Part shown: in pieces, positions 36,152 to 39,216 of the stretch
Layout: every line of letters begins with the position of its first letter
How positions within the stretch are numbered: position 1 is the stretch's first letter
Source: Catajapyx aquilonaris
Lineage: Eukaryota
Length of the DNA: 46,583 nt
Direction of reading: 5' to 3'
Assembly: GCA_000934665.2 (NCBI GenBank)
Contig: KZ538807.1
Location: forward strand, 1-46,583
The notes under the pieces: generated by a model
The model's input: the letters and a program-made list of their open reading frames with translations, nothing else
Database searches by the model: none
What the model was told of the DNA's origin: nothing
Translations under genes and position numbers: made by a program

Positions 36152-36216
36152 AATACTGCATTTTGGAAGGAAAGGAAAATGGAGATCAGTACATCCAGGA
36201 AGGAACTGGCAAAAGG
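36152..36216 (+). CDS. Gfrl: Gfrl-like exon I (65 nt, absent from the ORF track)
   Basis: Acceptor gtttttgacag|, donor AGG|gtacgt. EYCILEGKENGDQYIQEGTGKR. This exon is needed to convert phase 1 (exon H) to phase 0 (exon J). Confidence 0.88.
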
Positions 36217-36599
36217 GTACGTGCATTTAATTTATCTTTTAAATGATAAACACATAATACAAAAAATTAATTCAAAACCACCCCACACGGGAATATATTC
36301 AAAGTAACAAGAAATCAATTTTGGGAGTTTATATCTGTTCTACAGTACGAGCATACTTGTATACACAGTAGCCTACTAGTTCTAGGGTAACTTTTGAACT
36401 GTTTCAAATAATTTTCATACCGCCAAACAATCACAAGTGCTGAAAGAATTTTTCCAAAATGCTCTAACGACAATGTCCTCAGAGGAAGTTTTCCAGCTTT
36501 TTGGAAAATTTTCTTGTCGCGACAAGAAGAGCATTTCAAATTGCACTTACTCTGCTTTTAGATAGATAAATAATTTTTAATATGTACATAATTTTCCAG

Positions 36600-36807
36600 C
36601 TGTACAAAACGGACCACCCGGAGTGCTCCGAGGTGTGCTTGTGCCAGAAGGAGAAGCTCCTGGTGTGCAACGTGTTGGAGTGCATCGAGAACACGCCATG
36701 CTTGTCCGGTCCGGCCATCTACCTGCATTCTTCTCCAGCGTTTCAGGCATATCGAGGCCAATGCATCTGCTACTCAGGGAAATTCATTTGCATGAGGCCA
36801 CCTCCAG
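36600..36807 (+). CDS. Gfrl: Gfrl-like exon J: Cys-rich VWC/FnI-like module
   Basis: Acceptor attttccag|, donor G|gtataa. LYKTDHPECSEVCLCQKEKLLVCNVLECIENTPCLSGPAIYLHSSPAFQAYRGQCICYSGKFICMRPPP. Confidence 0.92.
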
Positions 36808-36870
36808 GTATAACATTACTGGTTCAAAAAAATGAGTGAGAATCACTAAAAAAGTGTTTGTGCCCAACAG

Positions 36871-37013
36871 ATAGCTACTCTCTGCCAAGAGGAGTGTTCC
36901 TCTTTGCTGGGTTCAGTGAGAAGGATGAAGGTTTGCTGAAGCCGTACACGTACAAAGGTGTGGAGGAAGCCATTGACGCCTTGCAACACCTGGTGGACAA
37001 GGTGTGGATACAG
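36871..37013 (+). CDS. Gfrl: Gfrl-like exon K
   Basis: Acceptor tgcccaacag|, donor CAG|gtatgg. DSYSLPRGVFLFAGFSEKDEGLLKPYTYKGVEEAIDALQHLVDKVWIQ. Confidence 0.9.
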
Positions 37014-38830
37014 GTATGGATGAAGGGGACACTTATTCAGGACCAAAAAAAATTATACTTATATCGACAGCATTTTAAAAATCATAGGTGCATGTACTGT
37101 GACCCTCTGGGGACGAATGTGCAGAATTTACATGCGAAAAAGAATTTTTAAAACTGTTCAATTTTTACGGAAGATAATCAGTTTATTCCAGCATTCTGAA
37201 TCAGTCAGGTTGAAAATGTCATTACAATTCAAAAGTTCTCGTGGTCCGCACAAATTTGCAATTTTATATTTCATGTTTGGTGCTTTGTAAGCCTGTCACA
37301 TAATGTCACATTTTGGTAAAATTGGGCCACATGTGTTTTAGAAGAACTCCAGAGTAATTCATCCGCAGAGGGTTCAAAAAAAAAGCGCATGATTTTGAAA
37401 AGTGATGTCGGCAATCGAGAGAGAGAGCGGTGTAAGCAAAGAGCGACGTCGGATGATCAATTATTATTATCAAAGAGAAATTGCTCAAATCTAGGAGAGA
37501 CCGGATTACGAGAGCAATGGCAATCTTCTCGATGAGAACGGCGACATCTCCCTAGAAGGGCTGCCACTCACCAAAGCCAATGCAGACGCTACCAAGGTTG
37601 GTGGCTTCCTATGTACATGTTTTCATCTCGGACAGCACACAACCCTTGCAATCCTAGACGCATTCCTAGATAACCCTGGGCTTCTTGATTACTTCTGGAT
37701 AAGTAATTACGACAATATTAAGGACATATTTTGTAGCTTTTCAACAGTCGAAGTATAGCCATAGCAGCGCCATCTGTAATCAAAATATATATTCGACATC
37801 ATATCTGACGAAAATGACATCTCATTATTATTACAATCATTACAAAAAATTTAGTGTGGCGTATTTTATTCTCCTACGATTTTTTGGGGGGTCAAGAGCC
37901 CAGTTCCCGCAGTTCCTCGGACCTCCAATTTGCATGAGACAAAACCCCACCAAGACCAGCTCTCTTCGTTTGCACCTGGAAGTTGACCAACTTGTCCATT
38001 CGTATTCCATTCTCTCTGCTTTATTCTTTAGTCAGACACACACCTGTATCTGTGGTAACAAACTCGAAAAAAACCATTCACATTGTATCCATTCCGCTGT
38101 GTACCTTTTGGACTTATGTATTACGTGTTGCCGGCACCACATCCGTTTTTTTTTACCTTATGGGCACTCCATAAATATTACGTGACGTGTTTTATATTGC
38201 CACCCTCATTACGCCCTTGATTTTTTTTTTGTACTTGCACGCATGTCACTCACACTTACAAGTAATGTAAGCCAGCTTGCCTTTCACCTCTTATGTTTGA
38301 TTAATATTCACACTTCTGAACATTGCTTTTTTACATTTACGCTAGTGCATACGCATTAAAGGCATGTGAATCCTTGGTACAATATTCTGCGAATGTAGTA
38401 AATTTATTCTGAAATTAAATTGCCATTGGCGATTACTTGCAATGTTTCCTAAAGTCTGTCACGTATCCTACCCTATTTTCATATAAACGAAGTGTTTCCT
38501 TATTTTTTTATTTGGACTGTCAAGGCACTGCCAGGATCAGTGATGCAAAAATGATGCAAATTTTTATTACAATTATGATAAGTTATACTATGAAAGAAAA
38601 TGACAAATAATTGATTAAATTAATTAATATCGTACAAGAGCTAAAGAATCAATTCAGTACATGTTCAACATATATCCCATTAATATTTTAGTTAATGTTT
38701 ATCTTCTAAGCAGAAATAATGAATTGTCAATTTCTTTGGGAAGAAACGTAATTTATGGTGAATTTATGACGCAATGGCCGCACTGTGGCCAGTATTTTGT
38801 ACTAAAACTGCTGCATTGTTTCCTCCACAG

Positions 38831-38947
38831 AATGAATGTCGTCTGTCATTGTACCTAAAGTACGACGAGAACGTGATCATCCAGGGCACCATTCCTGAGA
38901 GCAAATACGTGCTCAACATGACCCAAGAGCTGCTAAGGAAAGAAAAG
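38831..38947 (+). CDS. Gfrl: Gfrl-like exon L
   Basis: Acceptor tttcctccacag|, donor AAG|gtatac. NECRLSLYLKYDENVIIQGTIPESKYVLNMTQELLRKEK. Confidence 0.9.
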
Positions 38948-39006
38948 GTATACGTATGTCACTACAGTGACACTCTGCTTGACACTCACTGGTCCACACC
39001 TTTCAG

Positions 39007-39216
39007 GATAAGTGTAGCGAGCCCCTGGAGAAGCTGAGCAAGTACATCAACAGCAAGCATGAGTCCATCCACAAAGACATGCTGCTGTCCATCTTCAAAG
39101 TGGCAGAAGTCCGGGCGCTCATCCCAGACGACAACTCCAGCCAGTCCCTGCGTCCATCAACCTTCCTCCTGTTGTTGTTGCCCTCCCTTCTGCTACAACT
39201 TGTCGCCTCGTCGTGA
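39007..39216 (+). CDS. Gfrl: Gfrl-like terminal coding exon M with GPI-anchor signal
   Basis: Acceptor cctttcag|. DKCSEPLEKLSKYINSKHESIHKDMLLSIFKVAEVRALIPDDNSSQSLRPSTFLLLLLPSLLLQLVASS-stop. Small residues (NSS), a spacer and a terminal hydrophobic run with no cytoplasmic tail fit a GPI signal. Confidence 0.92.
   Translation, partial: DKCSEPLEKLSKYINSKHESIHKDMLLSIFKVAEVRALIPDDNSSQSLRPSTFLLLLLPSLLLQLVASS

Follow-up and report, generated by a model that had tools for sequence, protein, structure and literature searches.

A conserved C-terminal module of arthropod Gfrl in Catajapyx aquilonaris, with two cysteine-rich fingers possibly related to modules of RECK

The window analysed here is positions 1 to 46,583 of contig KZ538807.1 (46,583 nt) from the Catajapyx aquilonaris assembly GCA_000934665.2. 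Its forward strand carries a gene for Gfrl, which is to our knowledge the only GFRalpha-type receptor of insects. The tail makes up half of the protein, and we know of no structure or role ever assigned to it. A preliminary description, drawn from the DNA sequence by eye, proposed that this C-terminal part resembles a piece of RECK without Kazal motifs, and suggested that arthropod Gfrl may be a chimera combining GFRalpha domains with the portion of RECK nearest the membrane. RECK is a tumour suppressor and a Wnt7 co-receptor of the blood-brain barrier. The tail was examined by gene structure, homologue and domain searches, and structure prediction.

Exons of the Gfrl tail

The tail is encoded by five exons, I to M, downstream of a mucin-like stalk exon:

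35590..35881, + strand: mucin-like stalk exon, Thr/Pro-rich; start approximate; from the frame translation, colinear with orthologues
36152..36216, + strand: exon I; first strands of finger 1 with the first conserved cysteine; AG/GT borders; aligned to family column C4
36600..36807, + strand: exon J; remainder of finger 1, and finger 2
36600..36680, + strand: exon J, part 1; remainder of finger 1, TILa-like / EGF1_RECK-like; probably Pfam PF25868
36681..36800, + strand: exon J, part 2; finger 2, Pfam DUF7921 (PF25537), E 1.3e-21
36871..37013, + strand: exon K; linker, then the first strand and helix of the ferredoxin-like domain next to the membrane, from the orthologue model
38831..38947, + strand: exon L; strands 2-3, which contain a conserved cysteine, and a variable loop, from the orthologue model
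39007..39216, + strand: exon M; end of the K-M domain and glycosylphosphatidylinositol (GPI) signal; stop codon TGA at 39214-39216
39007..39123, + strand: exon M, part 1; helix 2 with a conserved cysteine, and last strand of the K-M domain
39124..39216, + strand: predicted GPI-attachment signal and stop codon; small polar residues, spacer and 18-residue hydrophobic tail, from hydropathy

AG precedes all five exons and GT follows exons I-L. From the DNA reading, the stalk exon ends at 35881 and is joined to exon I in phase 1 through the split codon G/AA; the remaining phases are compatible (0 after I, 1 after J, 0 after K and L). The exon I-M peptides quoted in the preliminary description were reproduced exactly from the DNA reading and the stop-to-stop frames. 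The GPI signal that it placed after exons K-M was also recovered. Small polar residues precede a hydrophobic C-terminal stretch of 18 residues, with 9-residue Kyte-Doolittle means of up to 2.7, and the end of the tail is a GPI-type signal by these features.

The upstream exons on the same strand are of GFRalpha type, 4/6 of their translations matching the Pfam GDNF/GAS1 family (PF02351; E 8.6e-9 to 7.2e-4). Their colinearity with insect and crustacean orthologues begins at about orthologue residue 100. The first coding exon or exons, corresponding to orthologue residues 1 to ~100, were not found in the window.

Conservation of the tail and its predicted fold

To assess conservation, the spliced 246-residue window tail (exons I-M) was compared by blastp with 36 orthologue tails. 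It matched 36/36, with a best E of 6e-71 at 42% identity over 256 columns, and identity to the nearest orthologues was 42-45%. Its 12 cysteines occupy all 12 of the cysteine columns with at least 70% conservation across the family. Conservation of the tail is far beyond chance. Within exon J, residues 28-67 match DUF7921 along the entire profile (E 1.3e-21, 77.2 bits, profile positions 1-40 of 40).

From 1.84 billion cluster representatives, a phmmer search with exon J retrieved 132 at E<=0.001. All 49 matches of at least 350 aa were scanned for Pfam families; DUF7921 was present in 47, and 40 also had GDNF/GAS1. The other two (P0097 and P0119, ~1095 aa each) are bacterial-type proteins lacking DUF7921 and were set aside as compositional chance matches. 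Each matches exon J in nine short stretches, and one of them has a type IX secretion sorting tail. Among the 83 shorter matches, 35 were scanned and 34 of these contained DUF7921.

Twenty-seven module stretches were aligned (alignment A1) for profile searches and AlphaFold2. Among longer proteins the A1 profile gave 95 matches, all arthropod and named Gfrl, GDNF-family-receptor-like or uncharacterized. Family members with a named source represent insects, a springtail, decapods, an amphipod, Daphnia, an ostracod, a millipede and a nematomorph. That all of these are arthropod or nematomorph agrees with the earlier statement that vertebrate GFRalpha lacks such a region. A word-indexed homologue search gave no match for exon J among longer proteins and none for exon M at near its own length. 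PF25868 is listed on 93/95 of the A1-profile matches. This family appears to cover finger 1 and not the K-M domain, because P0024, which has only the fingers, carries PF25868 and P0109, which is without finger 1, lacks it.

The window gene belongs by orthology to a known family; DUF7921 has a curated Pfam entry but is uncharacterized. Drosophila Gfrl and its arthropod orthologues share GDNF/GAS1 domains, a mucin-like stalk, DUF7921, a C-terminal domain and a GPI signal, and the window tail aligns with theirs end to end. The window gene likewise has GDNF/GAS1 N-terminally, DUF7921 after a Thr-rich stalk exon and a GPI-type signal. According to the available text of the Drosophila study (PMC3527400), GPI anchoring of Gfrl was demonstrated with phosphatidylinositol-specific phospholipase C, and the protein is mucin-glycosylated and binds FasII/NCAM. 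That text gives the region from the fourth GFRalpha-like domain to the anchor as a long sequence, without naming a domain in it. In a literature search of main texts, no paper on DUF7921 was found.

A few family members have unusual architectures. In P0001 (Diatraea saccharalis, 453 aa), three tandem DUF7921 domains whose flanks are nearly identical precede the K-M domain, and a long unrelated tail follows; an artefact of the gene model or the assembly, or else a recent triplication of an exon, is the probable cause. The 587-aa protein P0179 of Atta cephalotes, which combines neurotransmitter-gated ion-channel domains with a complete Gfrl tail module and no GDNF domains, probably represents two merged gene models. 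Two Gfrl-type genes with the tail module occur in one species in the amphipod Trinorchestia longiramus (P0005 and P0109) and in Copidosoma floridanum (P0193 and P0219). One of the two Trinorchestia copies, P0109, has no recognisable finger 1.

The structure of the module was predicted with AlphaFold2 from A1, the first row being P0026, the Bemisia tabaci orthologue that is the best blastp match of the window tail (42% identity). The model has a mean predicted local distance difference test score (pLDDT) of 92.8 and a predicted template modelling score (pTM) of 0.88, which points to one compact unit. Residues 1-90 contain beta structure only, along with ten of the twelve conserved cysteines; finger 1 spans about residues 1-50 and finger 2 (DUF7921) about 50-90. 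Residues 99-223, with the other two conserved cysteines, form a beta-alpha-alpha-beta-beta-alpha-beta domain. Internal duplication was considered as the origin of the finger pair and rejected, as hhalign gave a probability of 0.6% for finger 1 against finger 2.

Foldseek gave no match in the PDB at E<=0.001. Its best rows of finger type were fibronectin type I (FnI) pairs and the FnI-EGF pair of factor XII (probability 0.82-0.91, E 0.034-0.087). VIA-align was run over 48,161 chains and repeated over Foldseek's top 995. Model residues 98-226, the K-M domain, gave ferredoxin-like matches, listed here with their two VIA-align values:

Ribosomal protein S6: 7.3, 80
Trop2: 7.1, 100
Boca / BMY-1: 7.0, 76 / 82
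EpCAM: 6.8, 99
Gpr126 SEA region: 6.5, 92
PCDH15 EC11-EL: 6.3, 90
IA-2 ectodomain: 5.7, 90
MUC16-type SEA: 5.6, 100

Among the extracellular matches, several are domains adjoining the membrane. The K-M domain could be read as a SEA-type membrane-adjacent domain like those of mucins, serving autoproteolysis or shedding of the mucin-stalked ectodomain; we regard this reading as very improbable.

No Pfam family was found for the K-M domain in the window exons or the 27 orthologues with a local Pfam copy that does not contain PF25868, and the ESM Atlas gave no usable match for the K-M domain of P0026. Exon J had 0 matches in the PDB by sequence at E<=10. The A1 profile hit only three TopBP1 BRCT rows there (E 0.21-0.59), which were taken as chance.

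Taken in order from the N-terminal side, the protein would present an O-glycosylated stalk, two different small disulfide fingers, the ferredoxin-like domain of beta-alpha-beta-beta-alpha-beta order, and the GPI signal. Finger 1 is predicted to be TILa / VWF-E / FnI-like, and finger 2, the DUF7921 domain, FnI-like. In the model both fingers pack rigidly onto the ferredoxin-like domain, which has one conserved cysteine pair. Because several of the extracellular fold matches are membrane-adjacent and the module has the stalk above and the anchor below, it may serve as a rigid pedestal next to the membrane, on which the stalk and the GFRalpha-like head stand above the lipid anchor. The ectodomain of Trop2 and EpCAM is similarly built: its small cysteine-rich domains precede a C-terminal alpha/beta domain at the membrane. 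By analogy with it, the surface of the Gfrl module might make contacts in the plane of the membrane, either in self-association or with a partner such as FasII/NCAM or Ret. The confident model, with two fingers on a membrane-adjacent alpha/beta domain, offers testable surfaces for such contacts.

The fingers and RECK

Relationships of the fingers were sought by scanning Pfam with the 27 module stretches at E<=10, their full-length parents at E<=2 and 35 short members at E<=0.1. The gathering scores of the two RECK models concerned are 27 bits for EGF1_RECK (PF25027) and 30 bits for FnI_RECK (PF25028). In the module stretches the following families were found:

DUF7921: 27/27, best E 1.8e-24
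TILa: 21/27, best E 8.9e-6
FnI_RECK: 8/27, best E 0.0047
EGF1_RECK: 4/27, best E 8.7e-6
VWC: 2/27, best E 0.011
21 other families: 1 each

Beyond DUF7921 and the generic TILa, the main recurring families on the cysteine-rich part were the two RECK-specific models. Pacifastin was absent from the listed families, which were 25 of the 26.

EGF1_RECK was found in 2/27 full-length proteins, at residues 206-244 of P0131 (E 4.7e-5, 24.0 bits) and 124-150 of P0111 (E 0.0017, 19.0 bits). In both, the match ends exactly where DUF7921 starts (244-279 in P0131, 150-188 in P0111). FnI_RECK was found in 3/27, at 163-198 of P0081, 965-1000 of P0102 and 155-188 of P0111, each lying only a few residues off the DUF7921 match and in register with it. 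Among the short members FnI_RECK was second to DUF7921 in 13/35, again in register, compared with TILa in 4/35 and VWC in 1/35. The two RECK-specific models each match their own finger, and in the same order, as far as profile matches can tell. Since finger 1 is unlike finger 2 (0.6% by hhalign), this is not one generic motif matching twice. To this extent the proposed RECK-like character of the C-terminal third is partly supported for the fingers.

Several observations weigh against a kinship with RECK. All matches to the RECK models lie under the Pfam gathering score, the best EGF1_RECK match reaching 24.0 bits of the 27 needed and the FnI_RECK matches 13-19 bits (maximum 18.8) of the 30 needed, and they occur in a minority of family members. 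Exon J of the window itself matches no RECK family even at E<=10, giving only DUF7921 and TILa (E 0.044). TILa is the more frequent second family in the module stretches, finger 1 superposes equally well on the VWF E module and on FnI fingers in VIA-align, and the 132 phmmer matches of exon J include no RECK protein. The A1 profile likewise found no RECK among longer proteins, a search that requires shared 5-residue words and so says little about RECK.

Much of this evidence would suit a generic finger pair of the FnI / VWC / TIL type, as found in hundreds of extracellular proteins. In that case the K-M domain would be a ferredoxin-like domain specific to ecdysozoan Gfrl, and the RECK matches would reflect shared cysteine spacing only. 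The Pfam counts agree with it (TILa 21/27 vs 4/27 for EGF1_RECK and 8/27 for FnI_RECK), as does the ESM Atlas, in which exon J was placed, weakly, with VWC-type clusters (scores 0.80 and 0.79, under the tool's own threshold for usable matches). For the fingers, generic matches as good as those to RECK, which the preliminary description named as grounds for abandoning the idea, are a borderline case. The generic TILa model matches as well as the RECK models or better. Against generic fingers, two different RECK-specific models each pick their own finger, abutting one another and in the same order. Furthermore, the two best EGF1_RECK scorers either have no TILa match (P0131) or a much weaker one (P0111: 9.4 vs 19.0 bits). 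Gfrl differs from fibronectin type I fingers and VWF E (TILa) in that no match reaches the Pfam cut-off, and the general fn1 family never appears in the module stretches, parents or short members. We consider the generic explanation rather unlikely.

No Kazal, cysteine-knot (CC) or Frizzled-like RECK family was found anywhere in the Pfam scans of exon J, the orthologues and the phmmer matches, and this also counts against the kinship; CC4_RECK, RECK-like_N and FZ_RECK were missing from the 27 orthologues (E<=2) and from the 49 phmmer matches (E<=0.001). Because none of these domains is present, Gfrl is not a RECK family member by domain content. Both proteins are GPI-anchored, and EGF1_RECK and FnI_RECK give matches below the gathering scores to fingers 1 and 2 of some Gfrl proteins; RECK differs in having CC, Frizzled-like and Kazal domains, in place of which the N-terminal half of Gfrl has GFRalpha-type domains.

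These results suggest that the two fingers are distant relatives of the EGF1_RECK and FnI_RECK modules of RECK. As a whole, the tail is best explained as a conserved arthropod Gfrl C-terminal module of two fingers, a ferredoxin-like domain and a GPI signal that acts as a membrane-adjacent pedestal and whose fingers are distantly related to RECK, a reading to which we assign a probability of roughly 60%. For the known family to which the gene belongs, a deeper link to RECK is plausible.

The relationship might extend beyond the fingers. In the available text of PMC11809362, human RECK (971 residues) has cysteine knots at 37-338, EGF-like regions at 493-523 and 676-709, Kazal motifs within 635-799 and a GPI signal at 943-971, and no domain is named there for residues 524-634 and 800-942. 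This domain map therefore leaves ~110 and ~140 unnamed residues, enough to accommodate a pair of fingers and a domain like K-M. Two assumptions of ours serve as leads and not as evidence: EGF1_RECK and FnI_RECK are presumably neighbours immediately ahead of the first Kazal motif, and the K-M domain's pattern of two cysteines presumably recurs in the last stretch of RECK before the anchor. Gfrl and RECK could then possess one shared membrane-proximal cassette (finger 1, finger 2, ferredoxin-like domain, GPI anchor), with the Kazal block inserted in RECK in the short linker between finger 2 and the last domain, and the C-terminal halves would descend from one ancestor. We hold the chances of this to be evenly balanced. 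If it is true for the whole cassette, two co-receptor families would be joined, that of Gfrl linked to Ret/NCAM and that of RECK linked to Wnt7/GPR124, and ~250 unnamed residues of RECK would be annotated and provided with a structural model. The literature search found no paper linking Gfrl and RECK, and RECK has 0 occurrences in the available text of the Drosophila Gfrl paper (PMC3527400).

Other features of the window

At E<=0.01, eight intronic and flanking open reading frames had no match in Pfam. A run of 17 N at 8006-8022 and single N at 5457 and 34661 are all intronic. The introns also contain a tandem repeat at 20907-21071 (24-base unit, 6.9 copies, 99% match) and an AT-rich array at 33874-34096 with periods of 22/44/66 bases. 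The palindrome TGACGTCA occurs in 7 copies in the window against 0.45 expected, and 0/100 shuffles reach 7. Three copies are scattered (11404, 19074 and 45812). The other four lie within 274 bases from the stop codon (39214-39487), starting at 39214, 39357, 39409 and 39480, and this cluster in the 3' region could be a group of cyclic AMP response element (CRE)-like sites or a small repeat.
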